The translations under genes and the position numbers were made by a program. This document shows, in pieces, positions 32,301 to 60,930 of a DNA stretch of 64,000 nucleotides (position 1 is its first letter; the number at the start of each line of letters is the position of its first letter). The notes beneath the pieces were generated by a model. That model was not told the DNA's origin. It did not search any database and saw nothing but the letters and a program-made list of their open reading frames with translations. The DNA is taken from contig CM060732.1 in assembly GCA_030704615.1 (NCBI GenBank), positions 30,132,001-30,196,000 of the forward strand, written 5' to 3'. The stretch is from Takakia lepidozioides (Eukaryota; Plantae; Bryophyta).

Positions 32301-33950
32301 CTCCACGGCCCACTCCCTTGCTGATAGAAGGTTTATTCGCCCTCCCACGGATTTGGACGGTTCCGACACTCGTAAGACCTCGCCACCATTCTCACATGGC
32401 AGCGTGACTACTCTCTTGCGGCCATCTATGACCGCTCCGGATTTGCTCAAAAATGTCATCCCCAAAATGAGATCCACTCCATCGATCTCGCAGATGGTGA
32501 AGTTTTCACGTCCCTCCCAACTCCCCAGTTGAAGAGGAACATCAAACGCCAACCTTGTCGCCAACTGTGGTTCTCCTTTGGCAGAACGCACCTCAATAGA
32601 GGCCCCCACGTCATTTGTTGGGAGTCCCAACTTTCGCGCCGTCGCCGGCGTCATGAAGGAGTGCGACGCTCCTGTGTCCACCAACAACGACACGTTAGTT
32701 CCGGATATTATCCCATCCACGAACAATAACTGACTCCCTTTACGCAGGGCGCCAGTTTCCTGATACAACTCACAAGAATAGTTGCCTACCTTGCAAGTCC
32801 TGGCGACCACCGCTTCCACCAAGCGACTGATGGTATCTTCTGACAGCTCCGTGGTTGCCCGAGTCATGTTCAATTGTCGAGGTTTCGTGCACTTCTTGGC
32901 CATGTGCCCGGGCTCCCCGCAATTGAAACACACTCCATCAAATGTCGCATTCTGTCCGCCATAAGCCGCTCCACCCGCTTTTCTTTTCGAAGCACCGGGT
33001 GCCGCCTTGACGTGTGAAGGCCCTCCCTTCAATTTCCACGTGCCATTGTCGCCGCGTGGCCTATCCCACTTCTTTTCCGGTCGGAAGGAGTCACCTTCCC
33101 GCCGGGTCTTCTTGTGGTTCAGCTCCGTACGGCCTTGTCTCTCACCCCTAGGGACATCCGAGAAACATTCAGCCCTCTCAATTGCCTCGTTCAAAGTCTT
33201 GGGTGGCTTCTCCTCCAACTTCCGCCTGGCCCATGGGGCCAGTCCCGCCACAAAGTTGAAGACCATTTCTGGTTCTGTCATGTCCGCGACTTTGAGCAAC
33301 AGCACATTGAAAGCCTGGACATACCCCCGAATGTCATCTGTTTGCTTCAAATTCCTCATCTTGTCCCGGGCAAGCCAGGACGCGTTGAGGGGCACAAACT
33401 GTCTCTTCATCAATTCCTTGAACCCACTCCAGTTCAAGGTTTCCGGGCTTGGACCTCGGTCGTGAAGGCGTTTCTGCCACCATTGTTGAGCATAGCCCCT
33501 CAAATAGGTGGGAGCCACTTCCACCCGATCCTCGTCACTCAACTTGGCCGCTCGGAAGTACTGCTCTAGCTCCAGGAGCCAGGTGTTGAGTGCCTTCCGA
33601 TTTCAGACGCCCTCAAAGGTGTCGGGTTCCTTAGGCTTCACCTTAAACTTTGCCTTAGTGGAAGTGGCATTAGCCGCCTTCAACACGTCTTTCAACGTCC
33701 CGCCAAACTGCGCCAACAACCCTTCCCAAAGGCTGCCGGCATGGGAGGCATCTCTTGGTTTGTCGGAGCTCTCAAGGATTCCTCGGGCTCCGACTCCTCG
33801 GATTCCTCCCGCTCTTGAGCGGCCTCGTTTTCGGAAACATGCATCGCTTCCTCAAACGGCCGCCTCGGTGACACATCGCCCCCATCGGGCTCACCAGGAT
33901 CATCATCTTTTGGGCCGTTCCGCTTTCGCTTCGGCTTGCCCGACCCCATG
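29395..33950 (-). pseudogene. Chromovirus gag-pol (Gag, CCHC knuckle, protease, RT, RNase H, integrase, chromodomain), frameshifted
   Basis: [79 protein letters not shown]. The ORF is broken near 33600, 31300 and 30300. The first RT catalytic Asp reads Asn ([11 protein letters not shown]). Confidence 0.93.
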
Positions 33951-34004
33951 ATGAGGCCAATCCCAAGGACGATCGCGTACTGAACTCTAGGCTCTGATAC
34001 CAAG

Positions 34005-34731
34005 TGTCGTGCACCTCACTTCGGTAAGCTCCCCCTCAAGTCATAGTTACTCACTTTGATGCGCGCGCCTGACTCCCAACCTGGCCGCCAGGCCAACTTG
34101 GAGCTTCGGCTGCTCACCGGGGCATAACGGTCCCCCTTTGTTCTCCCAAAGAACCTCCACCAATTTGGAACCAGCGGGAATTCCCTTTGGTAGTTGGCAG
34201 TCCGGAACAGCTCCCCACTCTTTGGTCGCTTTCCGGCTCGCTCGCTTACTCACTAGTTTTTGGTCACCAACGGGCTTGCACCGTTCTCGGGGTTACTACT
34301 CCCTATATATACTTCTGTAGCTGTCCGCGGGGGTTTCACAACCAGCCATGCCATTTTATGGCGAACCACCACGAAAACCCTCGACTCCCGGTGATGAGTC
34401 GCGGTGAGTCTTGGCCCACTCACCACGGCCCCTATGGACCGTGATGAGTCCCAAGACTCCCCACGACTCCCACCACGAGGTCTCCGCCCCCATGGTGAGT
34501 CCTATGCCACCCCCACTAAGTCCCGCTAAGCTACCATCACCCCTTGTGGAGCCACCCCCTCCGCAACCCGGTGTGCGGGGCTCCACCTAGTGAGCGCCTC
34601 CGCCTCTTTGAGTGCCTTGGGCACTCAAGGGTGCTTCAGCCCCCCCATAGTTATCGCTGCCGCTGCCCCCACCACAGGGACAGCCCCTCATGTGTCCCGA
34701 CCCCCTGCCCTCAAGGCAAAGGGCCGCGACA
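34005..34731 (-). repeat. 5' LTR of the chromovirus
   Basis: TG...CA termini and an adjacent iMet PBS. Confidence 0.95.
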
Positions 34732-34917: not shown

Positions 34918-35002
34918 TGTCGAGCACCTAAGCATCGTGTCACAACATACATCGCTGTCCACCATACATTCTAAGCACACAATCCTAGAAAGCTATGCCA
35001 CA
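34918..35002 (-). repeat. Remnant of the 3' LTR of the DNMT/PHD gypsy element; the same ~85 bp also occurs at 27490-27573
   Basis: On the minus strand a PPT-like GGGGGGCGAT (35003-35012) is followed directly by TGTGGCATAGC. A near-identical block is at 27490-27573. Confidence 0.6.
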
Positions 35003-35259
35003 ATCGCCCCCCTAGCTGGTGCTTAGGTCCCTCTAACACTGGATAGCTGACAAGTATCCATCTCAATAAGATCATCGCTTGGTCTTCAATTGCACAAGTC
35101 CCAACACCTGAAGTCGATAGATCAAGAGGCCGGGTGCAAACGTAGCCCCATCGTTAGTCGCCTTCATGCAATCCATGATCTTCAGTTGAGTATCCATGGC
35201 ATTGAAGCCTCACTAGCTAGACCTTGGATCACTTGTCCGCCTCACCATTGTCATGCCCA

Positions 35260-37941
35260 CTACCTCTGTCCAAGGCATCGTGGACACAACCATTCTCCGA
35301 TAGGAACCTCCTCAAGTGGTGGTGTCAAGCATCCCATGTGTCACCCCCTTGAGCATTTATCACACACCAACATGGTGGCGGCACTACCAACATGCCCACA
35401 TAGCATGCAACGCAATCCTGCAGGTACCACTGCAAGGTTGGGATCTATCCTCCCATCCACATGTGGAAGGTGACATGGCGCACAATTGCGCACATGGTCC
35501 TTCCATACCATGCCATCTCGACCCTCCAGAATCAACACTCCTGAAGGCAACACCTCCCGGACCCTTAAAATCACACGTCCTGCTGTGACATCTAAAGTCG
35601 TAGGTGCTGTCTGCTGCAGATACACATAGTCCCCAGGGTGGAAATGCCGAATACCTGGCCGATATCCCCCTCCACGTATAGTGGCGTACCTCAATGTGTC
35701 TCGGTGTTGGGCAATAGCAAGGTTCTCAAAAGCCATAGGCATGACTCTCTTGAACAACTCTGCCCGTTGGGCACATGCTTATGTCCACACATTCGGATCA
35801 TCAAAGTTGAGGACTACTAAAGTCTCCCTACAAATAGATGCAGGCAAATCTGGCTCTCGGCCGAAGAGAAGAAAGTAAGGTGAGAAGGAGGCAAGTGAAG
35901 CTTGTTTGCTGAACCTATAGCCCATAGCTAGCCAAGGCAGTTGAAGGTCCCAATCTCCTAGGTGTCCTTTCTGCAAACCTCTCTTGACTGTCTGAACAAC
36001 TCTCTCCGCCAAGCCATCAGCCTCGGGATGATCCCGAGAAGTAGTGCGGTGATCTATCAAGGCTTGCTCACACAAAGCCTGAAACTCCCCCAAGAACTCT
36101 CTCCCCTGATCCGTGAGTACCTCGGCTGGAGCACCAAATTGGCTAAGCACTCGATCTAATAATGCATACGCAGCCCTCTCACTTGCCTTGTCAGGCAATG
36201 CCACCAGTTCAATCCACTTGGAGAAATGTTCCATCATCACCAGCACATACTTGTTATGGCGAATCGTTAGTGGCAATGGGCCTGCGAAGGCAAGACTCCA
36301 ACGATAGCCCAAACCCACCAATACTGCCCTTGCAGCAAACTATGAGTGCGCCGCACCCCAAAATGTCCCAACTCCTCATGGGCATGGCGTACCAATCGTG
36401 CTCGTTGTGTTGGATGAGGCACAATCCTCACTCGTCCATCCTCCCATACTCGGAGTAGATGAGTCCCCTCCCACCTCTTAGCTCGTTGTAGGATCCGATC
36501 TCTTTCCTTAGCAGTCCCACTGGCTGCTGTCTCTCTAGTACGAAGGTAGGCCAACACTGTCTGCATCTTCATGCACATCCTTAGCACCACTAAGCTCCTC
36601 ACTGATCTCTCCAATATCATCATGCTCGCTCGTGCATGGATTACGACTCAATCCATTTGCATCCCGATTGACAATACCGGCTCGATGCACCACCTGAAAG
36701 TCGTATTCTTGAAGCATAAGTGTCCACCGTGCAAGCTTCCCTGTAAGCTTGTCTGACTCCATCAACCACTTCAATGGTTGGTGATCCGTGACAAGGGTGA
36801 AGATATTGCCATAGAGGTAGCATCTGAAATGCGCCACTGCCCATACCGCAGCTAAACACTCCCCTTCATAAGAACTATACTTCGCCTCGACATCATTGTT
36901 TGAGCGGCTAGCATATGCCACTACGAACTCTCTTCCCTCATCATCCACCTATGTGAGCACTGCTCCAATCCCCAGCATACTCCAATCCGTATATAGCTGG
37001 AAAGGCCGCTCCCGAATAGACCGCATCAGAATAGGTGTAGAAGTCAATCGAGCCTTGAGTTCCTCAAAGGCTTCTTCCTGCTCCTCCTCCCACTGCCACT
37101 CACTCCTGACCCACCTTGGTCAACTTAGTAAGAGCCTTTGCAATGCTGCTAAATCCCTTGACAAACCGTCGATAGTAGTTTGCCAACCCCATGAAGCACG
37201 AACTCTGCTAACATCTATGGGGCGTGGAATGTGTGCAATGGCCTCCACCTTCGTCTTTTGAACACCCAATCCTCCAGGGTATATCATGTGACCCAGATAC
37301 TCAATTTGGTTGTGGAAGAACTTGCACTTCCCAGGGTGCAATTTCAACCCATACGCTCTCAAGCGCTCAAACACCACATGAAGGTGTCTCTCATGCTCCT
37401 CAACCGTAGCACTAAAGACGATGATGTCATCAATGTAACACCGAGAAAAGTCTAGCCCCGCGAGAATCCTATCCATAACCCTCTGAAACTTTGTAGTAGC
37501 ATTCTTCAACCCAAACGGTAGGAAGCGCTATTGGTACAAGCAATCCTTCCCATGTTGGTCAATCCCCCAGAATGTCGTCTTTTGCTTGTCAGCCTCTTTG
37601 ATTGGCAACTGGTGGTAACCAGATCGCAAGTCCAATGTGCTAAACACCTTCGCATGCCCAATGGCATTAAAGATTTCATCTGGAGTTGGCATGGCATATC
37701 TATCAGACTTAGTCTGACGGTTCACAGGACAATAATCCCCACACATCCTTCTTTCTGTCCAATTGCCATAGATATCCTTCTTATCTGGCATCACAGTTGC
37801 CGAGGCATATTCCCCGCCTGACAACTCCACCAATCCAGCTTCGAACAACTTCATAGTCCGTGACTGGATCAATGACCTCTCCATGTTACTATACCGGTAG
37901 GGCCTTCGAAAGATTGGCGTGTCACTTGCCAAATCAATCCG
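35260..37941 (-). pseudogene. Non-chromovirus Ty3/gypsy pol, 3' half: RT, RNase H, integrase and C-terminal PHD finger (degenerate)
   Basis: RRMCGDY, LDLRSGYHQ, YIDD, LYTDWS..VVAYASRSNN..SYEGECLAAVWAV, HEELGHFG, VLTDQGREF, ADGLAERVVQTVK, then CMLC..CDKC..HMGC..WLCPRC. Multiple stops and frameshifts. Confidence 0.92.
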
Positions 37942-37949
37942 TCCACCGT

Positions 37950-40900
37950 AATTGCCTCACCCCATGGAGATCCGAGACCATGATAGATACGTCTTCTTCT
38001 TGGCTGAGCATGCACAACCACCTTCCAATTCCCCCCTCTGTTTTGTCATCGGAAGAAAAACTTGCTCCATGTATGAAGGCTGTGCTGGAACCACCTTCCC
38101 TTGAAGAGAAGAGGCCGGTACCTTGTATACTGAAGTTGGAGTATGCTATCAAACTCTCCAATGTACTCAAGTTTGCTCATAGCAGGTCGTGTATTTCCCT
38201 TGCCCCACACGGAGTCTGCCAATATGTGGCACACAAGCCAGAATCAAAGGTTGTTTTGAGCTTCATGTCAAGAGCACGAATGCGGAAATGACGACCGTGT
38301 GAACCAAACCGCCATGTATGAGGTCGCGAATTGAGAGGGACCCCTTGCAATGTCTTGCCCAAATCTGAACCACCTCTCCTTGAGCAACGGCGTCATAAAC
38401 TGAAGTCCGAAGCCACTATTGGAATGAACTTAGAGGCTGCAATTCCATGGGCAAATTTGTGAAAGAACATTCCGGCGGCCCGCTCCTCGTCGTGGGCGTC
38501 TAGTAACCAGCTTGGATGGTTCCGCCTCCATGAAAGCGTCTCTTCCTCTCGTTGCTGAACAAGATTATTGTATCTTTCCTACCACTCATGTATGGCTGGG
38601 GTGTTCTTCAGTATTGAAGTCATGCGCTGCTCAATCACCAAGGTCGGCAATTTTACCCTCTTCGATTTTTGGGCAAACGATTTGTCATGGTTCGTGCATC
38701 CTCCTCTTCCTTCCACATTTGAGGGGCTTCTCATCAACCCTTGTCATGTACTCCGTGCAATAGAACATAGCTTCTTGCAACGTATACCCTCCGCCATGCT
38801 ACCCTCGGGTGCGCCATTTGTCTTACAAATCCTTTCAAAGTCTTCATATAACGCTCAAGGAAGTACATCCACCGAGAATGAACGGGTCCGGCAATCGAAG
38901 CCTCTTCCACTAAATGCACTATCAAGTGCACTTGGATGTCAAAGAAGGAGGGAGGAAGGTGCATCTCCAACATACACATTACCTCCGCCGCCTCCTTCTT
39001 CATGCTTGGCAAATCTGCTTCTTCCAACTCTTTGGAGCAAATCCACCGGAACAAGCCTCACAATCTATAGATTGTCTCGCGAACCTCGGGAGTCAATGTC
39101 CCACGTACTGCAATGGGCAAGATGTCTTGCAATAGATTGTGGTAGTCATGAGACTTAAACCATGGACCCCGTCTTCTTCGCTGAACTTCATACGGAGGGA
39201 TGACCCATAACCAGTGGTGTTCGGACAGCACTTATGGTGGCTATCACTTTCTTGTATTCCTCCTTTGTCCATTGCCAAGATGCATGCCTATACTTCCACC
39301 GTATAACACCCTTTGGGTCCACACCATTTTGTTCGGCCCATAGATGGCGCATGCGACCCTGCTCCTCAAGCTCCTTTCTAACACCGAGAGAATCTCCTTT
39401 TGCAGCCACTCTCTTCTTTGTCGGCGTGCCATAAAGAACCCGAAAAAGGAACGAGCAGACATTCTTCTCAATATGCATAGGATCTAGAAGATGGCGAATC
39501 TTCAGGTCCTACATATATCCACCCACAAAGACTTACACAATTTTTTTACTTGAAAGTGAAGTGACCTTGCAACGCATACCAAATGTGCAATATCACATGC
39601 ATGCATATGGATATTGACGGTGTTTTTGTGGAATATGTACCGCCCAATATGACAACTCGTAGAAGATTGAAAGTCGTTTCATGCCAGGCACGTCCACTTC
39701 ACAGTCCGTGTCCGCATGGGCCTCCTTCCATCGGTCCTCCAAAACTGCCCGGACGGTGTCATAGGGGGGGAACGTACTTCCTCTTTGTCAAACAAGTGTT
39801 TCTCTCTTCTTCTCCATCGATGGCTCATAGGAAGAAATTTACGATAGTTGGGATACACCATCTTGTGAAGATGGCGGGAGCTATGTGCATCAAGATCATC
39901 GCCACAAGGCAAGCATGCATGATACCCTTTGGTGCTTAGCCCCGAGCAAACAGTTAGTCATGTACTACACATCCCACCACATTAGCAAAAACAAAAAGTT
40001 GTCATGTGCATGGCCATAATGCCATCACCCCACTAAGTGCACAAGACTGTCGCCGCTACTTCAAACAATCCCAATTTTCATCGATATTATCCAGCATTGA
40101 CAAGTGAATGTACGCGGGTTGTTCATGGAGAACATAATATACCTGGATAATCATGCATTGTCCAAAGCAAGATGTCTCTCATCTGAAAATATTGTCCGGC
40201 CATAGGGTCAAGTGAAGCATCCAATGCCGGGACCCCCCTCCATAGCTCTTTAAGTTCATCAACAAGAGGTCGCAAGTACGTGTCCATGTTTGCCACTTGT
40301 TTTTTCCCTACGAGACATTTACATCATTATTTCAATGCTCCACCAATATGCAGATTATACTACAAAATGAATTACACATCTTGCTCCATGATTATGTCAC
40401 TCATCAATCTTGCATCTGAATTGCGTCAAAGATCAAAAATTTAATGTAAAGTCGAAGGCAATAATAAACATGAAATGAGTACACTCACCTGGCACAATGG
40501 TAGCCAACATGATATGGCATTTTTTAATTGAAAGATACGGAGGGATATTGTAATTCACCATGGTCACCGGTCAAGTGGAATGACTACATGACTGGACAGA
40601 GATTGGGTTGACCCCATCCGAGGAGAAGCCGAGGTGGACATGTCGTGGGTCCTCCAAGAGAAAATGCCACATCTCTTCAATATGCCTCCATGCTTGTGAA
40701 TCTTGTGGCCCACACACCTTTCCCGGGGGGCTCTGATGCGAGGCGTGCCATCTCATGAGTCTGGCCAATTCGGGGCTTCGGTATTGTGCCCTCAATCGCG
40801 GGATGATCGGAAAGTAATGCATTTTCTAGGATGAAATACCCCACGCCCCCCACATGTAATCATCCCATTAGCACACATAATACAACAACCTTATGCATTT

Positions 40901-41740
40901 CCCTTTATGCAGCCTCTCCCTCATTTGGGTGTGAATGGTTAAAACCAAACATCGCTCCTTCCACTTCTCACTCACTCCTTCCAAAACCACAATCAGATCT
41001 TGCATGAGTACTACTCTCTAAACCCTAAACTTTGTGGAATACACTTTACATACATTGAGAAGATTAAAGAAAATAATCTCCATGCGAGGGGGAATGGCGC
41101 TTATACCTTGCGTGGTACTTTTTTCCCTTGGACATCATCCCGATATCGGTCTTTCTTGCACTTTGGGCACTTTGTGAGATGCGAATCCTCTCCGTAGTAT
41201 AGGGTTTTATCACATGGACATGCATGAAAAATCTTATAGTCCATCCCCACAGAGTCCAAGACTTCGCGCGCCTCTTTCCGCGACCGTGGCATCCTGGGTT
41301 TCAAGTGTGGAGAAAGGATATAGTCTGCAATAGTTCGCATTATGGCAGACATCCCAACATTACTTATGCAAATCGAATTTGAAGATTGAGCAAAAATAAG
41401 ATTGTTGAAAGTCGACTCACTTTCGCCCCTTCGTACAAGGGAGTTCTCGCCTCCCTCTCCATGTCATTTGAGGGGGCCCTCAGGATCATCGATTGGTCGG
41501 GTTCCCTCTTCATGGGATGCATCAGCGCCCACATGATGCATTAAGAGATCATCCATGGCTTGCACATCCTCCTGGTAATTCCATGCTCATTGTTGTTATC
41601 ACTGTCACTATCACACTGTCATCGTCATCATCGTCCGGTACCGTGGGGGCGGCGTCTCACCCACGGCTCCCGCCTGATGTACTTGGGTTGTTTTCGGATA
41701 AGGTACCAAGAGAAAGCCGGGGACCGAGGGATGGATAAAG
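37950..41740 (-). pseudogene. CACTA Tnp2/TnpD transposase (Transposase_21, DUF4218 and DUF4216-like regions), multi-exon, degenerate
   Basis: ARTPLYEGAK, HACPCDKTLY..CPKC, YFPIIPRL..LMRWH, SSDGVNP, DTYLRPLVDELKELW, WTMHDYP, DPMHIEKNV, PPSFFDIQVHLIVHL..GPVHSRWMYFLERYMKTLKGFVR. Confidence 0.9.
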
Positions 41741-42738
41741 CTGATACGAACAAATGACAATGCATAGGGACATATATTATAATGTGTCCTTGCAACCATA
41801 CACTTCATTATAAGCGAAATGCAAACACAACCTTCAATGTGTGTGTGCATCAATATGTCATTCAATAATCTACTATATGTGCGCGCACGTACGCATGCAA
41901 AGTTTCAAACCCAAACAAAATCATTTGCCCCCCCCAATGATGCATTCACCCTATCAAAATTTTGTTTATTAATGTGAAAGAAATCCTCATGCATTGCACC
42001 CAACAAACGGATGTGGCTCAGGCTTCATTTTTTCCTACATGTGTGCAACACCTGTACAAAGATCCAGCAGGAAAAAAAGAAAAAAAGAAAATGCCTCCCC
42101 AACGACGCACTCACCCTTGCACCATTTTTGAATTAAATGAATTAAAATAAATGTTTGCATTTAGAAAATATATGATTGCGGTTTTAGGGGGGTTTTATTT
42201 TTCTATTTTGTTCTCTGCCTTTGTTTGCCCCACATCCGTGCCCAAAAAATGAGACAAAAAATAAATGGAAAAAAAATAAGTGGTGTTTCTAGGGTCACTT
42301 TTGCAGGAACTCTCTGAAAAGTGCGTAAAGTTGTTTGATAACTCAACTTTGGAATGCCAATGACACGAACAGATCTGTTATGGGTCTGGTCCAAATGACT
42401 TTGTTTACTCCCCAAATTGCATCACATTGCATATGCTATCATTAGGCATATGGCTTAAAAATGGAATAAAAATCATCTCCACTGCGAAACGACAACCCCT
42501 TGTTATGACACGTAGCTGCGTTAACACTAGAATGACCCATTGAATCCCTTGATTCAAGCTTTTCATATCTTGGTCTCCTGTGCATAAGTATGTTTAGATC
42601 ACATATGCAAGTTGCAACCCCCACGGACACGTAAAAAATTTACATCAATCGATTACATCGGATATAAAAAGTTGTTTCCCATCTCTGAGACAATCTCCCT
42701 CTGCCCGTTACGTGATCCCTTCTCAAAGGAACCCTATT

Positions 42739-43243
42739 CTATATACACTCCTTCGCTTTTTTAATCGGAGGTCCCTCATCCCGGGAGAACTCGTATGATG
42801 CAAATAGTTCGCTGCCAGCCTTAATAGTCCCTACATCACACAACAGTGTCTGCATCTCCCTCCAATATACTGTCGTATGACCACAAAAGCTCTCATGCCA
42901 TCGCTTCGCTCGTCCCATACTATTGGTTCTCCTAGGATGATCCAAAAGACTATTGACCAGCCTGCAGCAACATATGCCGAAGATTGTCGGGGTCACCCAC
43001 CCACAAAATTGATCTCATAGGAGACCCCCCCGTCTTGTACATCTTCTCCGTGACACACAAAATGTTAGGTGGGATGTATGGGCTTCGAGGCGTAGGAACT
43101 CCGCGGAGGTGTAGTATGGACCGTAGTAGGGAACCCAATGTCCACCATGCTATTCTCCGAGGAGGAACCACAATATCATTGACCGTGAATAAACCCCGAC
43201 CCATAGCAGGGCTGACTCTGGCTCTCACACCACTACCGCTCAC
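42739..43243 (-). pseudogene. Degenerate SET-domain-like coding remnant inside the CACTA element
   Basis: Across frameshifts the minus strand reads GVRARVSPAMGRGLFTVNDIVVP..VPYYGPYY..GDP..LVNS..TN..GTIKAGSELFASY. This matches the order of SET motifs GxGLF / Y.G / (F)INS..N / I.xG.EL..Y. Confidence 0.55.
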
Positions 43244-43949
43244 CGATCTCGAACATCACATTTCTCTCGGGGGGTGGGAGGGGATTCGAGATGATTCCCC
43301 CACCACACGGGTGTGGTCCTCAGTCCTTTCCATTGGACTTGCCTTCCCATCGGCGGTCCGCCGGAGGAATCCGGCTGATGGCCAAGCCAGCCAGGGGAGG
43401 TCTCTAGGGCGACCTCTAGCCGCACCCCACCTTCGTGTTCGGGGGGCACCATGCACTGGTGGTGGAGGTGGAGGTGTACTTTTGTAATGTCGGAGGTGCA
43501 TCGGGGTACCGGGCTCGTCCATTACCAGAGGTGGACCAGGCAAAGAAACGACGTGGGAGGGGGGAGGCCACAATCAGGGGTACCGCCCACTGGGAAACTT
43601 GGGGGGGGGGGGGGGTGCTCCTCCCGTCCACTCGCCTACGACACCCCCCCTACGATCCTCCTCGACCCTGCGAGGGTCTGCATCTACGTGCAGGGGTGTG
43701 AATTAACCTTCACATCGGGCCATGCTTGGCACAAATTCTGCCAAGTAGACAAGGTGCGAGCGATGCGCCATCCAGTGTGCAATCGAGGAGTGTGCATCAG
43801 TCCTGCTGCAATGTGCGCTTAGTGAACGACGCATCAATACTTATGTCCGTAATTTTGATTCATGTTATGCTTACCAAGTCATACTATACTTATTAGATAA
43901 ACCTAAATGTACCTTAAATGAATGTTAATGAGAGGGGTGTGGAAAAACA

Positions 43950-44165
43950 CTCCCCTTTGCCCGCATCCGCAATCTTTTCTTCTTTGTAATGTTTTCGACA
44001 ACATTGTGACGCCTCCTGGTGGGTGGTGCCGTGCCCAGCGGTATCCGTCCCACACTTAGTGCACCAACACTCAATCCTGTCGGGGGGGGGGTTAAAGGTG
44101 GACGTTGTTTGGACTGGTGGCCCGCGAGGGGGCACCGCGGCGCCCGACTCGATCCTGAAGTGCAC
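43950..44165 (-). CDS. Small Cys/His exon (IECWCTKC...CRKH), similar to transposase-associated zinc-binding N-termini
   Basis: CxCxxC motif followed by a GT donor-like site; lies upstream of the SET-like remnant and Tnp2 on the same strand. Confidence 0.35.
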
Positions 44166-45019
44166 ATCCTCCGATCCCCGGCAATCTGGCCCTCCCTTTT
44201 AGATGTAGCCTCATACCTTTTAACCCCCCCCCCAACCAACCGTCAATCCAAACCCACCATAAAGAAAAGCAAACACCAATCCAACCGTCAACCAAAAAAA
44301 AAAAAAATAAAAACTAGAAACCCAAAAAGCCCCAACCTAAATCCAGAAAGGTGGCCGTCGCCTCCTGCGCACCATGCCACCCTGGCGTCGCATTTACGCG
44401 AGTTTTTTTTTTTTTTTTTGGGGGTCACAACCCCAGCGACGGACAGCGGGACGCAGGGGCGACGTGTTTTTTTTATGGGGCCGGGGGTCGCAAGAAACAA
44501 CGGCCAGCCGTCGCAATCTTCATTTTTACATTTTTAAAAAGGGCGGGCGCAGGCGTGCGACAGCCGGGCATCGCACGTGGGCGCCGCGCCCTTTTTTTTT
44601 CCCTAAGTGCTTCAAGCATCTCTTTCCCCTCCCGTTTTTGTTTGTTCTTTGGGAGAGAGGTAGTTCAGAGAGTGGGGTTTAGGGTGGAGGAGAAACGCAC
44701 CTACTGTTGAGCCCGAGGTGGTCGCAAGGCCCCAAGAAGTTTGCCCCAACGCTGCTCCAACGCCCAAGGTAAGCACCGCCTCCTCCCTCACTTTCTGTCT
44801 TTCTTTCTTGCCCTAAGCACGGGCTGATGTTTCTCTCCCATGTGTGGTAGGAACGCCGCGCAGAGGCGCGATCTAACGAGCTGAAGAGAGAGAGAGCCGT
44901 GGTGAGCGGGGAGAGACGCCCTGCAGTGGCGGGGACCCGCGTCGCTGGCAGCCGCGACAACACCGCAGCAGCTCGTCGCGCCAGCTTGCTTCAAGCACCA
45001 GCAGCAGCAGAGGTACGTC

Positions 45020-45965
45020 AGGGAAATTGCACTCTCCCTTTCCTCTCTGCTTCTGTTTACTGTTCAAATGTAGTCTTCCTGCCCTAACTTTAAATTTAGG
45101 TCTGGTGCCAAGAGTGGGATAGACCCTTGAGCGCATCCATGATGTCCTCCCCCATGTCACAGACTGGAAACAGGTTTCAGGGAAGTTTTCTTCCTAACTT
45201 CATTTTCATCGGACAATTTTCTGGTAACAGACATGGCTTTGGACACTACACTCTCTAAGTCAGGTTTATCCAGCAAGGTCAAGACTTGCGGGTCCAGATT
45301 CAGATTCTTGAGAATCTCTTTTACTCTCTTCTCCCAGGGCTCACCCTGTTTGACAGGGCGGTCCTGTTTCCAAGATATAGAGTCGATTAACTTAGGATAT
45401 CTGGTGTTGGACATATATTGCAGCTGAACCCACCATCTGACCTTGAATTTAGGGTGTCGGGAGCTTAAAAGAGAGCAGCACAGAAGAGAGGGAGAGAGAG
45501 GGGAGAAAGGGAGTGAGAGGGAGACATCAGGGGGCAACAAAGAAAAGAAAAGAAGGTGGGGGGGGGATGACTGAGCAGCTGCTGCTGCTCAGTCACCCCC
45601 CCCCCCCCCCACATTCTCTGTTTTTCTTTGTTGCCCCTCTCTTGGGGAAACAAAAGGGACAGATCCTACCTCTGTCAGGGGCTGACGTTGGTAGTAAGAC
45701 TCACCTTCACATATAGAATTAATCCGGGTTTTCCAGATATCCTCTACAAATCCTTTCACACAAGCATCAATTTGTTGTGTGTGAGTTGCCCAAAAACTAG
45801 GCCTCAGAAGGGGCCGGGCTTTTAGCTCAGCCTCGACTTTTTCAAAGTTAGTAAACAGAGGTACATGCACAATTCCCTTGATAGATTTGAAGAGAGCATC
45901 TCTTTGGTGAGAGAACCCCGGACAGTGTATCAGAAAATGAATAATGTCTTCAGGTTGCCCACAGA
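45020..45965 (-). mobile_element. Rearranged non-LTR retrotransposon (LINE) 3' fragments, an inverted copy of 51420-52119
   Basis: Minus-strand peptides DKPDLESVVSKAM..KFKVRAG..RGKGECN and CGQPEDIIHFLIHCPGF match the plus-strand ORF 51448-52119, with the two segments in swapped order. Confidence 0.75.
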
Positions 45966-45985
45966 CATGGTTGGACATGGTTCTG

Positions 45986-47055
45986 CCTCTTTCCTTCCTT
46001 GATTTTTGAAGAACAACTGTAATGCTTTCTATGATGGGCTAGTTCGGCCCAGCCAGTGGAAAACCTCTGTTATGTTGTGACAGGCGGGTTTATGATGGCT
46101 TGTGTGAGAGACACACATCTGTTTTCCAGGCCCTAGTTTGCTTTGCTTACCTTATGGTAGTTGGAAACAAATTGAGGCTGCAAGGAACTGTTTGCTGCAG
46201 CTACTCGGGTACCTCTGTTGGTAAAAGGCCCCTGTTATGTTCCAACCCAGATGGCTTTGTTAGCTAGATACTTAGGCCAGGGTATGGTGAAGTTTATGCC
46301 TGTGGCTATTCGGCTGACACTGAAATATGGCAGTAATATAAATGGTAACTAGTTTTTGAGGCAGCCAGGGTGGTCAAGTGGAAATACCCCCTGGACATGG
46401 TGTAATGACATGGTCAAATGTGGAATGATGTGAAGGGTGTATTGACAGTATCATATACTGTCACAGGATGTGTATATAGTCCTTTATATTTACCTTGATG
46501 TGTCATGAGCTTTGATTTTCAGCTGTAGCAAGAAATAAAGGTATAGGGATGTTCTGGAAAACTTACCAGACATATCCACATCCCTTGTGGGGGCAAACTG
46601 TACTGCACACCAGTCTAAACAAATACTGGCAAGGTAAGGTATTTAAATCTGTGATATCCAAGTTCTTTTTTAAGAAAACCCTCCATGACACCCATGGGGT
46701 TTTAGTAAGTATGCTTGGATTACAGCTTGCAGACAGTAAATCTGTATGACTATGTGACCTGCACCACATCAAGGCCAAAATATGGCCAAGTACCCGCCAT
46801 CCCACCCAGACCTCTGTAAGTGTATCATGATCTTGACTGGTGGTCAATCAATATCAATGGCATACTCTCTGGATTATGAATAATACTGACATGAACACAT
46901 TACTGTGCATGGATGTAATTCTGGATTTTCTAAGCTCGATGATTGATGGATGGCACCACTGTTAAGTGGCTGATATGTCTATTTATTCTTTCATGACATC
47001 GACCCTAGGGGTCCTGTCTTTGTCTTGACATGACAAAGAGTATCTTCCCTCTCTT
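45986..47055 (+). repeat. ~1.07-kb direct repeat, copy 1
   Basis: Highly similar to 50320-51400; no TG...CA ends. Confidence 0.92.
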
Positions 47056-47079
47056 ACTGTCCAGTATGCTTAGTGGTTT

Positions 47080-48780
47080 TTGCATACACTATCCCTTGGT
47101 CACCAGGCTAAATTTCCAGTTTATGTGCAGAGTTCCACCAAACAGACTCCGGAATGGATTGCTGAGCTGCAGACCATGGGATATCAGCCACCGCTGCCCC
47201 CTCCAATCCCTGCTATTCAGGCTGTGTTGGCACAAACAAAGCCAACGGACTTCCATGCTAAAGTGCAAGCATTGGACTCAGCAGCTATTGATTCAGTGAT
47301 GACAATCCAATCCTGTTGCTTGAGACTTTGGCCCTAGAGGACTGGGTTAAGCTGTCCCTATCTGCAAATAAAAATGGCAAGTACATGATCAGGCTGATTG
47401 ACTATCATGACGTATGCCTACTATCCTTGAAGAGGATACCAAAGAACTCTCGGAATGTGGTCTTAAAGGAGAAAAGATTGAGGCTGCACTAAGTCTGGCT
47501 AACCCTGAAGACGAACAGGCCCCTTCTACCCGGAAATCGCCCTCCAATGCTGAGCAGGATTTTACCCCCTCCGTCACCAATCACCCGCTTCTAAGTCACA
47601 TGTGTCTTCCCGAACATGAAATTGATGCGGTGAAGGATTTCTGTGAGCATGTGGAAATGTCACAGGTGGAACAAGACAGGGCAGCAGGCGCTACCCCGGG
47701 GAATCAGCAATTTGTCCCTTGGACACCCCCTTGCTCTGTTGAGCTCGACGTGGCCAACAACGAGCACATGATGTGGCACCCGCAAGCCAACATCAACCTC
47801 TTAGCACCCATCTCCATCGAGATGTGGATGAAGTGGGGTAACATCACTGATGCTGAACACCTACATTGTTATCAGGATGCTATAGATGGTTTCCAGAGAT
47901 TCAAAAAGGAGCCCATCGCTGTTGCATGACCCTTAAAAACATTTTATTATAAGTTATGTGACAAATGGGACAATATCGCTCTTAGGACCAAAAATGATCC
48001 CCCTATTGGATCAGTCCGTTCCCGGAATCACAAAAGCCAACTCTGGAACTGGCACATGCCATACCTAAGATGTAATTGTGGACCTGGTGCTGCTCCGTCT
48101 GGATGTGTTGGAAGTGTGGCTTGGTTCGATCATTTGGTCTGGTACATGATTAACCATCTTGGGGCTTTATTTCCCGATGCAACATACCCCACAGCACAAA
48201 GCAAGTACTATAGCTTCATTGTATGGCTGATGAGGGCTGCCAAATCTGCAATACTGGCTCAGATAACATTCCAAATGATCCAGGAGCTCCTTTTGGAAGC
48301 AGCAGAATCTTTTGCCGATAACCCCAAGGCAAAATTGCTTGATAAGCTACTGGACTCCAAAGGGCTAGATTCATTGAGAGATTGATCAAACCTAAATCTT
48401 TCTCCGACAGCCTCCCCAAACCTGCGTTTAATAGCTATAAACGGCAACGCATTGAAGGGAACACTTTCCAGCAAACAGGGAGACCCAACAGGGGCAGGGG
48501 TGCTAATTTCAGAGGACGTAGGGGCTACCAAAGAGGTGGCAGGTTCGGGCAGAAACAACAATCTTTCTCCAACTCCGAGAATGCTAAGTCCGTAACTAGA
48601 ACATCCAATGGAGGCTTTGGATCCAATTCCTGCTCCACAATCGACATTGGGAGCCATGGGTCGAACCGATCCAGACAGATGGCAGGAGAGTTCTCCCCAA
48701 TCCACAAGAGGAACTTTGATGCCTGGGAATGATCATTGACAACCTAAAAATGGTATGTCCTTTCCCTTATGTATGCAGAT
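47080..48780 (+). pseudogene. Degenerate gag-like ORF, possibly from a DIRS/tyrosine-recombinase retroelement
   Basis: Long interrupted reading frame ending in an RG-rich tail (RGRGANFRGRRGYQRGGRF). It is followed by FDAWE..IIDNLKNGMSFP, which recalls the start of DIRS RT ORFs. No RT or recombinase core is visible. Confidence 0.35.
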
Positions 48781-50319
48781 TTGTTGACTTTTGATGGAAC
48801 AAAAAGAAAGAAAACCATGCATAAAGCAGCTGGTTTCTTACACATGTAATACCTTGAATAAACTAGTTTTATTTCGGGGTCTATGCTCAATACATACCCC
48901 AATCACACCATTAAGGTTGATATACTTGTTTCGGATACCCAGTTTGTCTAAAGGTAGCCTGATAATCCTTTTCAGGACATCTTCCGAAGGATTGGCATAT
49001 GAGCAGGGAGAGTTTGCCCTTTTAGAGAGGAGTTTGGTATGCACTCCCTTACGGGGTGAGTGCATACCACACTCACTCCGTAAGGGCCTGCCATACCAGG
49101 GGTTGGATGGTGGGGACACTGGGCTTATGGAATTGTTGTCCCGACTTCCATCCTTGAGGAAATTGAAAAAAAATTGCAAAATTGGGTTGCAGGGAATTTT
49201 GGATGTTTTTTATCCAAAATAATTTTTTAATTATATTTTTTTAGTGAAATATTTCTTCACTATAAAACTTGTGAGTTGCAAAACTCCCGTCAGTTTCTAC
49301 TTTTTCAATCCAACCTGGATGAAAAAAAGACTTCATCTGACAGGACCTAAATACAGGGCAAATGTTTTTTTTTTAAAAAACCCCCCATGTTTTTCATCTA
49401 ACCTAGATGAAATACGGACTACATCCGTTGAGTACAAGACAGGATGAAAGCACGATGTCTTTCATCTTCCACGAATGAGAAATGGACTACGTCCGTCGGA
49501 CGGACAGACTGGCGGATGTTTTTCATCCTGAGAAGGATGAATGACGGGCCAGATAGGGGAAAACCCTGCGCAACCCTAATGTCTTTCTTTTTGCGCTGCG
49601 AGAGCGCGCGCGATGGCGGCTTGTGAGGAGCGATGGTGCTCGTGCTGCAAATACCTTGAGCTGCCAATCCTTGAGTATTTATGGCTCCCGTGAGCGACGC
49701 CTGGGCGGGCTCTTTAAGGCGATGGCGGTGGCTTAGTGATGAGGGAAGATTCCCTGTCTCAGTTGTCTGTTTTTTTGGCTGCACAAGGGAACCGCGGCAG
49801 TGATGGCGGAGGCACCACCTGCATGCCTAGGACGTTTCCCTAGGAGCCCTCCTCTGGATCTTTGATGAATGGCGGCACAAGGAAGTCTCTCTCCCTCCCT
49901 TTATAAACCCTACCTTTTGGGACCAAGCTCTTTTTTTCTTGTGCTTGGCAAGACCTTGCTTTGGTTAAGGTAGCAGTGCTGTTGTGTTGGCGGAGTCCTC
50001 CCTGCACGGTTAGGCTTTTATTTTTTCGGTTGGTTTTGCTTCCTTGCTTGCTTTGGCATTCTCTGTGCTTAGATTGAAGTGTATTTGACCTCGATAGCAA
50101 GTGTGGAAGCCTGCTACTCACCTCGTGCATCCTCACTAACTCACAATGCGTTGTGGTTGTTTTTGGGACGGGCACAGGTGAGGGCTTCCACTTAATATTC
50201 TGATGTCTAGGTGCTGCTGGATGCCAAGTGGGATTGCAGAGTAGGGGAAATAATCGCTTGCCAGGGACTCATCCTAAAATGTTGAAAAACTAAACTACTC
50301 TATGGTTTTCTTGATCCTA

Positions 50320-51400
50320 CCTCTTTCCTTCATTGATTTTTGAAGAACAAGTGTAATACTTTCTACGATGGGCTAGTTCGGCCCAGCCAGTGGAAAACCT
50401 CTGTTATGTTGTGACAGTCGGGTTTATGATGGCTTGTGTGAGAGACACATATCTGTTTTCCAGGCCCTAGTTTGCTTTGCTTACCTTATGGTAGTTGGAA
50501 ACAAATTGAGAGGCTGCAAGGAACTGTTTGCTGCAGCTACTCGGGTACCTTTGTTGGTAAAAGGCCCCTGTTATGTTCCAACCCAGATGGCTTTGTTAGC
50601 TAGATGCTTAGGCCAGGGTATGGTGAAGTTTCTACCTGTGGCTATTCGGCTGACACTGAAATATGGCAGTAATATAAATGGTAACTAGTTTTTGAGGCAG
50701 CCAGGGTGGTCAAGTGGAAATACCCCCTGGACATGGTGTAATGACATGGTCAAATGTGGAATGATGTGAAGGGTGTACTGACAGTATCATATACTGTCAC
50801 AGGATGTTTATGCAGTCCTTTATATTTACCTTGCTGTGTCATGAGCTTTGATTTTCAGCTGTAGCAAGAAATAAAGGTATAGGGGTGTTCTGGAAAACTT
50901 ACCAGACATATCTACATCCCCTGTGGGGGCAAGTTGTACTGCACACCAGTCTAAAACAAAATACTGGCAAGGCGAGGTATTTAAACCTGTGTTATCCAAG
51001 TGTTCCTTTCTTTTCTAGGAAAACCCTCCATGACACCCATGGGGTTTTAGTAAGTATGCTTGGATTACAGCTTGCAGACAGTAAATATGTATGACTATGT
51101 GACCTGCACCACATCAAGGCCAAAATATGGCCGAGTACCCGCCATCCCACCCAGACCTCTGTAAGTGTATCATGATCTTGACTGGTGGTCAATCAGCATC
51201 AGTGGCATACTCTCTGGATTATGAATAATATTGACATGAACACATTACTGTGCATGGATGCAATTCTGGATTTTCTAAGCTTGATGATTGATGGATGGTG
51301 CCACTGTTAAGTGGCTGATATGTCTATTTATTCTTTCATGACATCGACCCTAGGGGTCCTGTCTTTGTCTTGACATGACAAAAAGTATCTTCCCTCTCTT
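50320..51400 (+). repeat. ~1.08-kb direct repeat, copy 2
   Basis: Highly similar to 45986-47055. Confidence 0.92.
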
Positions 51401-51419
51401 TTTTTAACTTTTTCTGCAG

Positions 51420-52119
51420 AGGGGTCAACTCTGAGGTTAAGAAAACCATGCTTTGTCGCATTATTAGACCTGCCTTGGAGTACGGATCTGCAATATGGGT
51501 TGATAAATCTGACTTAGAGGCTGTAGTGTCCAAAGCCATGTCTGTTGTCATGAGATTGTCTGATGAAAATGAAGTTAGACAGAAAACTTCCCTGAACTTG
51601 TTTCCAGTCAGCGACATGGGGGAGGACATCTTGGATGACCTCAAGGGTCTACCCACTCTTCGCACTAGACTGAAATTTAAACTCAGGGCAGGAAGCCTAC
51701 CTTTGAAGAAGCAGAGAGGAAAGGGAGAGTGCAATTGCCCGTTGTGTGGGCAATCTGAAGACAGTACTCATTTTCTGATACAGTGTCCGGGGTTCTCTCA
51801 CCAAAGAGACGCTCTCTTCAAATCTATCAAGGGAATTGTGCCTGTACCTCTGTTTACCAACTTTGAAAGTCTCAAGGCTGAGCCAAAAGTCCAGGCCCTC
51901 CTGAGGCCTAGTTATTGGGCAAATCACACACAGCAGTTTGATGCTTGTGTGAAGGGATTTCTAGAGGATATCTGGAAAACCCAGATTAATTCTATATATG
52001 AAGGTAAGTCTTACTACCAACGTCAGCCCCTGACAGAGGCAGGTTCTGAACCTTTTTTTTCCGCTCAAACTGGGCGCGGGGTCAATGGCCACAAGGCTAC
52101 GGCAAACAACGTCTTATGA
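51420..52119 (+). mobile_element. LINE ORF2 C-terminal fragment (RT thumb plus CCHC zinc finger), internally deleted
   Basis: IIRPALEYGSAIW, KFKLRAGSLPL, CPLCGQSEDSTHFLIQCP. Confidence 0.78.
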
Positions 52120-52329
52120 GTACAATCTTTTAACTTTTTCTGCACCCTCTCTCCCTTGTGGTTTGTTTACTTTTGTGAACAGCAGGGAGAGAGAGAGAGA
52201 GAGAGGGAGAGGGAGAGGGAGAGAGGTAGAGAGGGACAGAGAGAGGGAGAGATCAGGAAACCAAAAAAAAAAAAAAATGGGGGGGGGGGGGAGTGACTCA
52301 ACCCCCGACATGCTTGGTTTTTCAGCAAA

Positions 52330-53932
52330 GAAGGGCCTGGACTATGGGGCGCCGCCGCCGGCTATGCTCCACATCTGGAATCTACTTCCAGTGGCGCTCC
52401 GAGAGGGGATAGAGCGGGCACATCCGGAAACGGGGACTCCTCCCACATCGGGTGACACCAGGGGCGAGTCGGACAAGCTTGCAAAGGTACAACTGTCGCA
52501 CCTTGTTCCATGATTTATCCTTTCCTTTGCATGCATGATTTTCTTTGTTGTTTGTTTCTTTTTTTGAATTTGGAGGGGTTATTTGTCTTCAAGAGGCAGT
52601 AACATGGCTGGCCTCATTGGTGCAGTCCAGTGGGGTTGCCAATGAGGGAGAGCACGTGGTGTTCATGAAGGACCCGAACACCAAAGGTAAGAAGAAGAGG
52701 CCTCGATCTCCCGAGATCCTTTTTACCATCAATGAAGGGGCTGTCGAGGAGAGAGAGAGAAGGGAGAGGGAGAAGGAGAGAGAGGAAGTAGCGGGGAAGG
52801 GGAAGGAGATGGTCGTGGAGAAGGAGAAAGAAAAGAAGAAGAAGAAAAAGAAGTCCCATGGAGAGGAAGAGGTGAGTGTGCATGCGGAGGAGGGCAGTGG
52901 GGTAACAAAGGAGCAAACAAAGGAGGCTACAAAAAAAGGAGAGGGTGGGATGGCCTTGGCGATACAGGACGTGGAGTTGGCAAAGATCGTGGTGCCACCG
53001 GTGGAGGTGAATCGCCATGGTGACCCCTGCGGTGCGATCTGGGAGGCTATGAAGAAACTAGCCTTCGAACTCGCATTGAGGTGGTTCCCTTTGCACATCG
53101 AGTGGGCTGATCAGCACTTTGGCGTGAAGCGGGCGTATGCCCGGGAGTTAGACTGCCGATTTCCAGGCAATTGGAGTGACACAAGGGTGATGGAGATGGT
53201 GGGGCGAAACTTGAAGGACAGGAGGTACCGTGCCAGACAGATCATTCGGCGGGCAATGGAAAAGGGGGCCATACCCAAACCACCTTATAGAATTATACAG
53301 GTTGGCAAATCCTGAATCATGTCACCTTCCATTTGTCGCATGTGCATTAATGAGGTGGATTCGATGCAACGTATGTGTATGATTCACTAATTGTTGGGGG
53401 GGTGCATAGGTATCGTGGGATGCACTCATTGCGGGAGAGACTGATGCCGCAAACAAGGCCAAATTTGATCGGGCACGCGAAGCAACAACAGTCCGCCTTG
53501 ACAAGCACGAATCCACACACAAGTGGGGCGCCGGCGGATCCAAGGGTTTTATCTTGCGATTTGTAAGTCGTACTTCCCTGTGGATTTTGTTATGTCTTTT
53601 TTCTGGCTCCATCATCGCAAAGAACTGACTTTAATTTGTGGCATGTGTAACAACGCGCGTTTGAGAGGAAGCCATCTCCAGTAGAGTACAACTACGCCAA
53701 GGAGCATGGTTGGCAATCCCTCATGAAGAACATGGGCAACACAGAGGGGATGAGTGCACTACATGGCACTAGTATGGATGAGGTCGAGGGTCATGCCCAG
53801 GGATTGGATGAGAGCTCTGTGGGACTTAGGGGAACGCCGCCTCATTTACGTGCTCTGGCAAAGGGCGCGGAGTCATCAGGCTCATCGGACAGCTCTGAGT
53901 CCTCCACTGAGGATGAGGATGAGGATGACTAG
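52330..53932 (+). pseudogene. CACTA ORF2 / TnpA-like (Ptta/En/Spm, Transposase_24-like) gene
   Basis: VEVNRHGDPCG..W..Q..LKDRRYRAR..PP, then an exon VSWDALI..KAKFDRAREA..THKWGAGG. Lies directly inside the CACTA terminus. Confidence 0.6.
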
Positions 53933-54881
53933 TCCTAGTCCATGTAGGGTCAGTCTACTGAACCCTTGTGAGCTTTTCAGTTCATTTCTTGTAAATATAT
54001 TTCCATCTTTCCATCTTCCATCTTATTCATGTGTCACACCGTCCTCACCCTCGATTCATGCTTGCTCAATTGTGTACCTGCTAACTCAGAGAAATGGAAC
54101 TGTAAGTTCTCCCATCCCCAAATACAAAACCAGGAAAAAAACAAAAAACCACCCCCAATTCACCCCCAAAATGAACCCCCAACCTCCCCCCACCAGGCTG
54201 CCCTCGCGACTGCAGCACGTCGCCAATGGCGACGTGTTTTTTGGGCGGGGATCGCAAGCAGCGATGGTCGGGCGTCGCAAACCCCATTTACGGACGGCAA
54301 CGCCCGACACCCCCTGCGACGTGTTTTTTAGTCCGGGGGTCGCAAGCCGCGACGCCCTGGCGTCGCGGAGACCGCCACCCTGCCTGCGCCACGTTTGTTT
54401 TTTGATTAAATTTAAAACAAAAGCAACGCCGGAGCGTCGCAACAACCCACGCCCGGGCATGGCGAAGACCGACTCCTGCTGTTTTGTGCCACGCCCAATA
54501 GTCGCTTGGCGTACCACCCGGCTGACTCCCAGGCAGGTTAGAAAAAGAAAAAAATGGATACGACGCCGCGCCGGCGCCCCCACCAACGCCGTCGGCTGGA
54601 GGGCCGCAACGGCGAGACGTCGCTCGAAGAGGCTCCTGCAACGGCGTGGATGGCCTAAAAAACCGACGTCCGACAGTCGCGGGAGTTGGGGCGGGGGCTC
54701 GCGACCCCCATACGTCGCATTTTTGCGACGTCATTTTGGCGACGCCCTTGCGACTGCAGGGCGACGGCCGGGCGTCGCAAATTCTGCGCCTTCCGCGTGC
54801 CCGAAAAGGGCGTTTTCCTGACGCTGCTGCGTGGCCTTGGCATGGCGCGGGCGTCACAAAGGCCCCCATTTTCCTGTAGTG

Positions 54882-55825
54882 CATGCACAAGCCAATTATC
54901 CATGTCAAGCAATTTAGATCCATTGTCTGACCCAACACCTGGCGTCGTGATGCCTCTGACAGAGCTGGCACAGATGTAGTGCCCGTGACAAACCCCATTG
55001 CCAGCTCGCGCTCATCCGCATTGGGCTCCACCAATTGTTGTAGCACACTGTCCCAAATCAACCCAAGACCATTGTCTCGAAAAGCATGAGACGAGGGAAA
55101 GCTCATGAGCGTAGACAAGGTTGTACGTGGCTGCCCCACTCGATTAACCATTGCTAGAGATGGACGGTCATCATGTCGCACCCTCTGTGGTTGCCTCCCT
55201 TGGTCCAAAATGCCCTCAACCGTGAGATTGGGTGGCCGTTGAATGGAATCATATGCTCCTTTGAGCAGCTCTGGTGGTGCAAGATTGGTCCACCACAATC
55301 GAGGTCGATGAGCGCATGATCCCACCGCTGCTGCATCGCCGATCCAATCCAAGACCGCACCTGATGCACACTGGCCATAACCCTGGCCCGAGAGTCCCCC
55401 ATAAGAGGAACAATCTCCAAGATATAGGCTAGAGGTTGCACTTGCCTCGTCTGCAAGTCACGCAACACTCTCAACATCTCCCAAAACAAATGCGATCGTG
55501 CATCATGCAAGCCATTCCCATGACCTACGGGAGAGTATCCTTGGCAAGGCCATCCAGCTATCACCAAGTCAATGACACCATGCCGGTCCAAGTCATCCGC
55601 CCCCAACATGGTAATGTCTGATGGCAAGGCCTTTTGGTACCCTTGAATTGCTGAGAGAGGCAGCAACTCAGGGTACTGGTGTGTGAGCAAGACAACGTGG
55701 CACATAGAAATTCGCCGAGCTATCTTATCCTTGTCCACATACAAGTACTTTTGTACTTTAATCCCAGCTTGCAACACTCCTGCAAGCCCAGTGCTCATGC
55801 CTCCAAACAGGTCTAGCAAACAAAT
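54882..55825 (-). pseudogene. DNMT3-type C5 cytosine DNA methyltransferase domain encoded within a Ty3/gypsy polyprotein
   Basis: Motif I LDLFGG, motif IV DLVIAGWPCQG, motif VI YILE(I)V, motif VIII DAAAVGSCAHRPRLWWTNL, motif IX ERELAMGF and motif X RRQVLGQTM, in canonical order, with no introns and one frameshift near 55340. Confidence 0.92.
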
Positions 55826-56199
55826 CCCTGAGTTAGGTGGTTGTCAGGTAATGGGCACTGTGTCCAAAGGAGCTAACTGAGGAGGTCTAGGTGATGTCAC
55901 TGAACTCCCCTCACTCACCTCCTCCTGCCATGCTTGGTGCACACACTCGCCTGCTATTCGATGCAAATTCCCAACTGTACCCCACAGTGGAATATGAACA
56001 GACACATGAGGAAGCAAATCAGCCTTGTATGTCAATTGTTTGTCCTCATCAGGTGGTGGCCTATCATCTGCATGGCTATTGCCCTCCAAGAGCTCACCAC
56101 CCCAAGCCACCACCCCTGAGAATGCAGCCAATGTGGGCATCATGTTCCTATGATCCACCGCTACATTCCCAATAAACCGCACTGGGAGCAGTGCACGTC

Positions 56200-60499: not shown

Positions 60500-60930
60500 A
60501 TATATATTGGCGGTCCCATATAATTTATTATTTTTAATAAAAGCGACTGCCCATATTGGCGGTTGCTTGTAATTTAATATTTTGTTAAATTAAGCGACCG
60601 CCAGTATTGGCAGTCGCCGGTAATTTATTTATTTATAAATGAAGCGACCGCCCATATTGGCGGTCGCCCCTAATTTATTTATTTTTTAATGAGACGACCG
60701 CCGAAATTGGCGGTCGCCCGTAATTTATTTATTTATAAATGAAGCGACCGCCGAAATTGGCGGTTGCCCGTAATTTATTTATTTATAAATGAAGCGACCG
60801 CCCATATTGGCGGTCGCCCGTAATTTATTTATTTTTAAATGAAGCGACCTCCCATATTGGCGGTCGTCCGTAATTTATTTATTTTTAAATGAAGCGACTG
60901 CCCATATTGGCGGTCGCTTGTATTTTATTA
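60500..60930. repeat. Tandem array of 50-bp units, each with a GCGACCGCC-N6-GGCGGTCGC palindrome and an AT-rich linker (~8 full copies)
   Basis: Units start at ~60541, 60592, 60642, 60692, 60742, 60792, 60842 and 60892. Confidence 0.95.

Follow-up and report, generated by a model that had tools for sequence, protein, structure and literature searches.

The window analysed here, a stretch of 64,000 nucleotides from contig CM060732.1 of Takakia lepidozioides (assembly GCA_030704615.1, positions 30,132,001 to 30,196,000 of the forward strand), contains the remains of a DNA transposon whose features are collected in Table 1. The minus strand carries a Tnp2 transposase gene, a stretch that resembles a SET domain, a proline-rich linker and a likely first exon with a CxCxxC motif; the plus strand carries the likely parts of a second gene, and the two halves are separated by later insertions.

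Table 1. Features of the transposon in the window, with the observations on which each assignment rests
Feature	Position	Strand	Basis
Tnp2 (TnpD-like) transposase exons	38050..41673	-	PF02992 and PF13960; frameshifts and stops
SET-like domain	42726..43255 (core 43228-42793)	-	several indels break the window copy
Putative Pro-rich linker, 64% GC	43256..43683	-	shares the frame of the SET start, with two stops; contig depth low
Likely exon 1 with CxCxxC	43955..44167	-	ECWCTKC at 44072-44052; frame shifted once, at a poly-C run
Internal cluster of GTCGC-core motifs, likely divergent promoter	44350..44560		7 sites, about 20 times the window mean
Likely 5' exons of the second gene	44700..45012	+	GT donors at 44769 and 45013
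Later insertions between the halves of the element	45021..52300		LINE-like pieces and a duplicated 1.08-kb block; self-BLAST
Putative second ORF of several exons, resembling TnpA in position only	52590..53930	+	ORF with acidic C-terminus
Likely right end, which reads 5'-CACGCGGAAG on the minus strand, with subterminal GTCGC-core repeats	54200..54799		19 sites

The assignment of the element to the CACTA/EnSpm superfamily is based on the combination of a Tnp2 transposase domain with DUF4218 and on the presence of subterminal repeated motifs, of which 19 with a GTCGC core were found in 54200-54799. PF02992 is matched at 40141-40287 (E=8.6e-12) and again, just under the cut-off, at 39820-39948 (E=1.2e-6), and PF13960 (DUF4218) at 38737-39057 (E=2.4e-27). 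The full-length relatives P0059 and P0084 align over 41450 to 38662, and the 3' end of the gene is truncated by a Gypsy remnant near 37960. The DUF4218 piece has 43 relatives, the best of which is 63% identical; 18 of them come from the fern Adiantum nelumboides and one from Citrus. None of 124 related Tnp2 proteins has a SET match. The element is multi-copy, as 4200 contigs of the public run X1, in four identity classes, fall on 40900-45100, and the stop codon at 41659 is a sense codon in every X1, X2 and X3 contig that covers the site.

Only one terminus, CACGCGGAAG at 54799, was located; no matching left end or target duplication is present in the window, and the left end is lost under the Gypsy remnant. 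Between this terminus and the Tnp2 gene lie 7 kb of insertions, and the link across them is drawn from the motif cluster that the two sides share: 44350-44560 aligns with 54200-54420 at a score of 87, compared with a maximum of 43 for shuffled sequence. It is fairly probable, on this basis, that the Tnp2/SET side and the 54799 side are halves of one element. An alternative element end at 44579 was rejected because contigs of other copies pass through it. The likely 5' exons at 44700-45012 are covered by many DNA contigs as well as by contigs of run X7, and loose contig ends lie at 45021. The second ORF (52590-53930) has no Pfam match and no significant match to P0045. Within the inserted sequence, 45021-47055 and 50317-52062 are rearranged duplicates that include a direct copy of 1084 bp at 95% identity, and inverted LINE-like pieces flank a hairpin at 45531-45637.

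The SET-like stretch was brought to attention by an earlier note on this DNA, made from the letters alone, which listed a series of frameshifted minus-strand peptides following the order of SET motifs. All of them are present in the place and order that the note had given: MGRGLFTVNDIVVP at 43204-43163, VPYYG at 43134-43120, GDP at 42997-42989, LVNS at 42960-42949, RTN at 42930-42922 and GTIKAGSELFASY at 42831-42793, all on the minus strand and distributed over two frames. They lie, as the note also said, between the CxCxxC exon and the downstream Tnp2 gene, with all three on the same strand. The window copy of the element is dead.

Whether the stretch is peculiar to this dead copy, which the note had named as grounds for abandoning its reading, can be judged from contigs of public sequencing runs, and these show it to be multi-copy. 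On a 701-bp SET stretch there are 203 contigs in X1, falling into identity classes of 79, 41, 59 and 24, and 95 in X3, which shares one sample with X1; a further 3 and 1 come from two runs of other studies, X7 and X8, which are only guessed to be RNA runs. Indels at 42775, 42897, 42921, 43136, 43139 and 43152 separate most of the copies from that in the window, and the window copy is therefore the damaged one. The central Y-x-DG and GN-x-A-x-x-x-NH motifs are garbled in the window copy. At its garbled places the hand-translated loose ends of other copies read YVDG, GNVAGLVNS and FVxTCASRTIKAG, central and late SET motifs in the order of the profile consensus; scored against the SET profile described below, YVDG gives 4.9 bits and GNVAGLVNS 7.6 bits, with a serine in the latter replacing the invariant histidine of the profile. 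One contig of 912 nt from X8, possibly RNA, covers 42762-43211 with a net gain of 14 bases between the first and the last motif, so that the distance becomes 387 bases, or 129 codons, and the frame is kept, an agreement which has a one-in-three probability of arising by chance. In the same contig, the Glu codon of GSELF departs from that of the window copy at two positions.

The position of the SET stretch relative to the transposase gene is best approached through the full-length relative P0059, which starts with a CPCxxC motif and has a weak match to PF13963 (E=0.095). The window CxCxxC exon aligns weakly with the start of this protein (pairwise E=0.068), and the spacing agrees approximately: in P0059 the CxCxxC lies about 127 amino acids before PLFEG, and joining exon 1 to 41673 gives about 116 amino acids for the same interval. 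The CxCxxC exon is thus probably the transposase's own first exon, and because the full-length relative begins with the same CxCxxC module, the SET exon is likely to lie inside intron 1 of the transposase gene. Splice context predicts a phase-1 acceptor AG before 41673, at the start of the Tnp2 sequence, and another before 43683, at the start of the linker, and both would fit the same phase-1 donor. These phase-compatible acceptors suggest alternative splicing, either to a protein composed of zinc finger, linker and SET domain or to the transposase. The description of the locus in the earlier note, as a passenger upstream of the transposase, therefore needs to be revised: the stretch is on the same strand and apparently inside one CACTA element, but it is probably an exon within the first intron of the transposase gene itself. 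The reading preferred here, to which a probability of about 0.6 is assigned, is that the window holds a dead member of a multi-copy CACTA/EnSpm family of plant elements, in whose transposase gene the first intron likely carries a SET exon.

This arrangement must be weighed against two others which accept the SET domain and place it differently. The first is that SET is a separate accessory gene of the element, with its own promoter or a start in the linker and with no shared exon 1, in the manner of PAG2 of the Plavaka elements. Such a gene would be in keeping with the SET genes of known transposons, which are separate ORFs, with the lack of any splice joint in the contigs of the public runs, with the exon-1 donor, which reads GG rather than GT in the window copy, and with the contig depth, which is low over the linker (at 43297-43719) and is not treated as a finding here; the linker, however, continues in one frame from a phase-1 acceptor compatible with the donor of exon 1, and a separate gene is judged unlikely. 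Two joints in the contigs were considered and set aside: that between 43939 and 44052 in X7 was rejected as a splice because it is without splice ends and covers the predicted intron, and that between 43211 and 44402, a candidate deletion derivative, is probably a misplaced loose end instead.

The second arrangement is that the stretch is a captured fragment of a host gene, or a separate small mobile element, which sits passively in the intron and has no function for the transposon. The capture of host sequence by Pack-CACTA elements is described, no contig among those listed bridges SET and Tnp2, and depth falls on the 5' side, all of which would suit a passive fragment. Against it, no inverted or direct repeats surround the SET stretch among those listed, the stretch is intronless and diverged from the profile members, its motifs are kept in divergent copies from three studies, and the frame is kept in the one contig that spans it, so that a passive fragment is considered quite unlikely.

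The identity of the domain itself was evaluated with a SET profile of our own, which was built from 90 prokaryotic and viral SET proteins, out of 102 ORFs collected with a SET motif (the other 12 were non-SET, fragments or duplicates), and of whose members all 8 that were spot-checked belong to PF00856. The N-terminal GxG-F motif scores 19.3 bits, the highest value among 362 blocks of the window, and its score is matched by 0 to 1 of 300 dinucleotide shuffles in each of four settings. The C-terminal I-x-x-GEEL-x-x-x-Y motif is present, including the final tyrosine, as IKAGSELFASY, which at 10.7 bits is the highest-scoring of 127,930 six-frame positions in the window. When the two motifs are compared by hhalign, the expectation values are 0.003 and 0.014, with probabilities of only 10% and 3% respectively, and the YYG block scores poorly against the profile (-2.7 bits). 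A read-through of the stretch with X at ten breaks scores 4.2 bits (E=0.002), or 6.3 bits once the motif used for collection is removed from the profile; none of 2000 shuffles scores as high, although this is a generous test, because the break points were chosen by hand, some of them by eye, and the shuffles ignore that freedom. A frameshift-aware Viterbi alignment, a kind of check which the earlier note had proposed, finds the first motif only, and no single alignment of the window copy contains the whole domain.

In the ESM Atlas, with 42742-43014 as the query, 30 of 30 among the matches listed are SET clusters, one of them from Streptophyta, with a top score of 0.94 and a recognition value of 2822; the 155 shared features are fewer than the 170 typical of true family members, and a score of 0.9 is reached by 4 to 10 of 100 shuffled proteins. 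The N-terminal piece finds no SET in the Atlas. The PF00856 cut-off was not reached, with no Pfam family found for the single-frame pieces or for P0001, queries which consist of broken pieces only and include no intact copy; there is likewise no SET match in NCBIfam or PHROGs, no SET among PDB sequences (two weak, unrelated phmmer matches), no relative of the SET pieces in two word-index protein searches, no true relative by HMMER among 1.84 billion proteins, and no match in viral contigs. Several candidate matches were discarded: two HMMER matches are mucin-like and inverse-autotransporter repeat proteins, which are repeat artefacts; two plasmid tblastn matches at E of about 1 are neither of them SET; and metagenome DNA patterns gave 0 matches and then 10 that all arose by chance, with no similarity to the element. 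An AlphaFold model from the single sequence, for which the query was partly out of frame, has a pLDDT of 42.

The SET reading of the earlier note thus holds up in its terminal motifs, the profile built here, the Atlas matches and the other copies, while finding no match at library thresholds. The likeness exceeds chance by a modest margin, and we consider it highly probable, from the sequence evidence, that 42726..43255 encodes a SET domain. That the peptides are instead a chance likeness in a decayed ORF of another kind is very unlikely, in spite of the blank Pfam, NCBIfam, PHROGs and PDB searches, the blank second Atlas query and the Atlas scores of shuffled proteins, because each of the terminal motifs is the best or nearly the best of its kind in the window, the distance between them is sensible, and the two central motifs are supplied by other copies. 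The protein of intact copies would be predicted to methylate lysines. Because no cysteine-rich tail follows the last SET motif in either frame, the canonical plant classes give no guide to which lysine would be the target.

The earlier note regarded a SET domain as unusual for a CACTA element, which was overstated, since the red-algal Plavaka elements, members of the EnSpm/CACTA superfamily, carry the accessory gene PAG2 with a SET domain (PF00856; bioRxiv 10.1101/2025.02.11.637652). The likeness to the window element consists of a DNA transposon of the EnSpm superfamily that contains a SET domain, a likely one in the window, of the occurrence of many decayed copies and of a proposed role in chromatin. 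In Plavaka, in contrast, PAG2 is a gene of its own within a cassette of three, and it also has a DNA adenine methylase domain, whereas the SET of the window element is apparently an intronic exon and is not fused to such a methylase, as no piece of 42742-44242 matches a methylase family in Pfam; the transposase of the window element, moreover, is a land-plant Tnp2 (PF02992 with PF13960), unlike that of Plavaka. Other DNA transposons with SET methyltransferase genes are the Phytophthora HarbingerS and MuDR elements (cited in PMC12730594) and proto-Helentron-Pi (PMC4067079), which belong to other superfamilies and to oomycetes. The Helentron SET has a clear CDD match (E=3e-24) and is similar to Clr4, whereas that of the window is divergent and has no cysteine-rich tail. 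SET cargo on transposons is already described, at the level of sequence, from algae and oomycetes. The listings and abstracts searched, among which subscription journals and Repbase do not figure, contain no account of SET exons in Tnp2 elements of land plants. In the passages searched of a review from 2026 on plant gene capture, which describes Pack-CACTA capture of host sequence, SET does not occur as a whole word.

The gene structure proposed here resembles that of Spm/CACTA elements, in which one transcription unit produces, by alternative splicing, the transposase and an accessory isoform (TnpD and TnpA), and of which those of Arabidopsis reportedly use TnpA itself for anti-silencing (bioRxiv 10.64898/2026.08.24.746577). 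The TnpA target CCVTCGCAAA also resembles the clustered GTCGC core of the window, which is often followed by A. TnpA, which lacks a catalytic domain, acts through DNA demethylases that it recruits from the host, whereas the alternative product of the window element would itself be enzymatic. The TnpA-like ORF of the window, moreover, is apparently transcribed divergently, unlike that of Spm. VANC of the VANDAL MULEs (PMC5735166) would be comparable in concept, as a chromatin regulator encoded by the element. In SETMAR/Metnase an exon arrangement unites SET and a transposase in one gene (bioRxiv 10.1101/2021.11.30.470311, a eukaryote-wide survey that counts gene models fusing SET to transposons), but SETMAR is a single domesticated host gene in which SET is fused to a mariner transposase, whereas the window element belongs to a multi-copy mobile family and would have SET and the catalytic transposase on different isoforms.

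In the mechanism that the intron-1 arrangement suggests, one transcript would be spliced in two ways, from exon 1 to 41673 to yield Tnp2, or from exon 1 to 43683 to yield a zinc-finger-linker-SET protein of about 395 amino acids; exon 1 would be common to both. The shared N-terminal module may take the SET enzyme to the chromatin of the element itself or to its transposition complex, and the histone mark that the enzyme would write there would promote expression or mobility. This is the most likely of the roles considered, and it is put forward tentatively; the enzyme might otherwise modify a protein other than a histone, for example the transposase, or write a self-limiting repressive mark. 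The plant anti-silencing proteins VANC and TnpA act on DNA methylation and are not methyltransferases, and a SET isoform would therefore represent a different route. A broader proposal, that a land-plant CACTA lineage makes its own lysine methyltransferase by splicing the N-terminal zinc-binding exon of the transposase onto an intronic SET exon, that it marks its own chromatin in this way to escape silencing, and that the arrangement is ancient and common to seed-free plants, is doubtful at present. If a land-plant CACTA element does produce a SET isoform, self-written histone marks would become testable in a transformable plant, for which the dead window copy is only a pointer to intact copies.

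The surrounding sequence is a nest of other transposons flanked on the plus strand by host genes at 11120-16036 and 19752-24739, which we take to be a YSL/OPT-like transporter and a multi-exon LRR receptor kinase. A young LTR retrotransposon at 27764-34731 (-), with LTRs of 728 bp at 98% identity and a C-terminus which is presumably chromodomain-like, is nested in older LTR sequence. The decayed Gypsy pol that truncates the transposase occupies 35000-37957 (-) and ends in a Cys-rich tail, presumably PHD-like, for which there is no support in Pfam. On the other side of the element, a retroelement remnant at 55157-55843 (-) carries a piece of a C5 cytosine DNA methylase (PF00145, E=1.4e-10) and is accompanied by a gag-like ORF at 56161-56730 (-). 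Retrotransposons bearing DNMT genes are reported from dinoflagellates and charophytes (PMC5890265), and the present remnant is apparently in a land plant. The region 60504-62811 (+) is possibly another cargo-carrying DNA transposon: a tandem array, in which a 50-bp unit with a GGCGGTCGC motif is present in 8.9 copies, precedes a basic ORF at 61506-62060 and a frameshifted kinase-like ORF (PF00069, E=1.6e-5, under the cut-off). Two imperfect palindromes, at 63042-63573 (77% over 536 bp) and 63661-64000 (67% over 354 bp), are possibly MITE or foldback elements.
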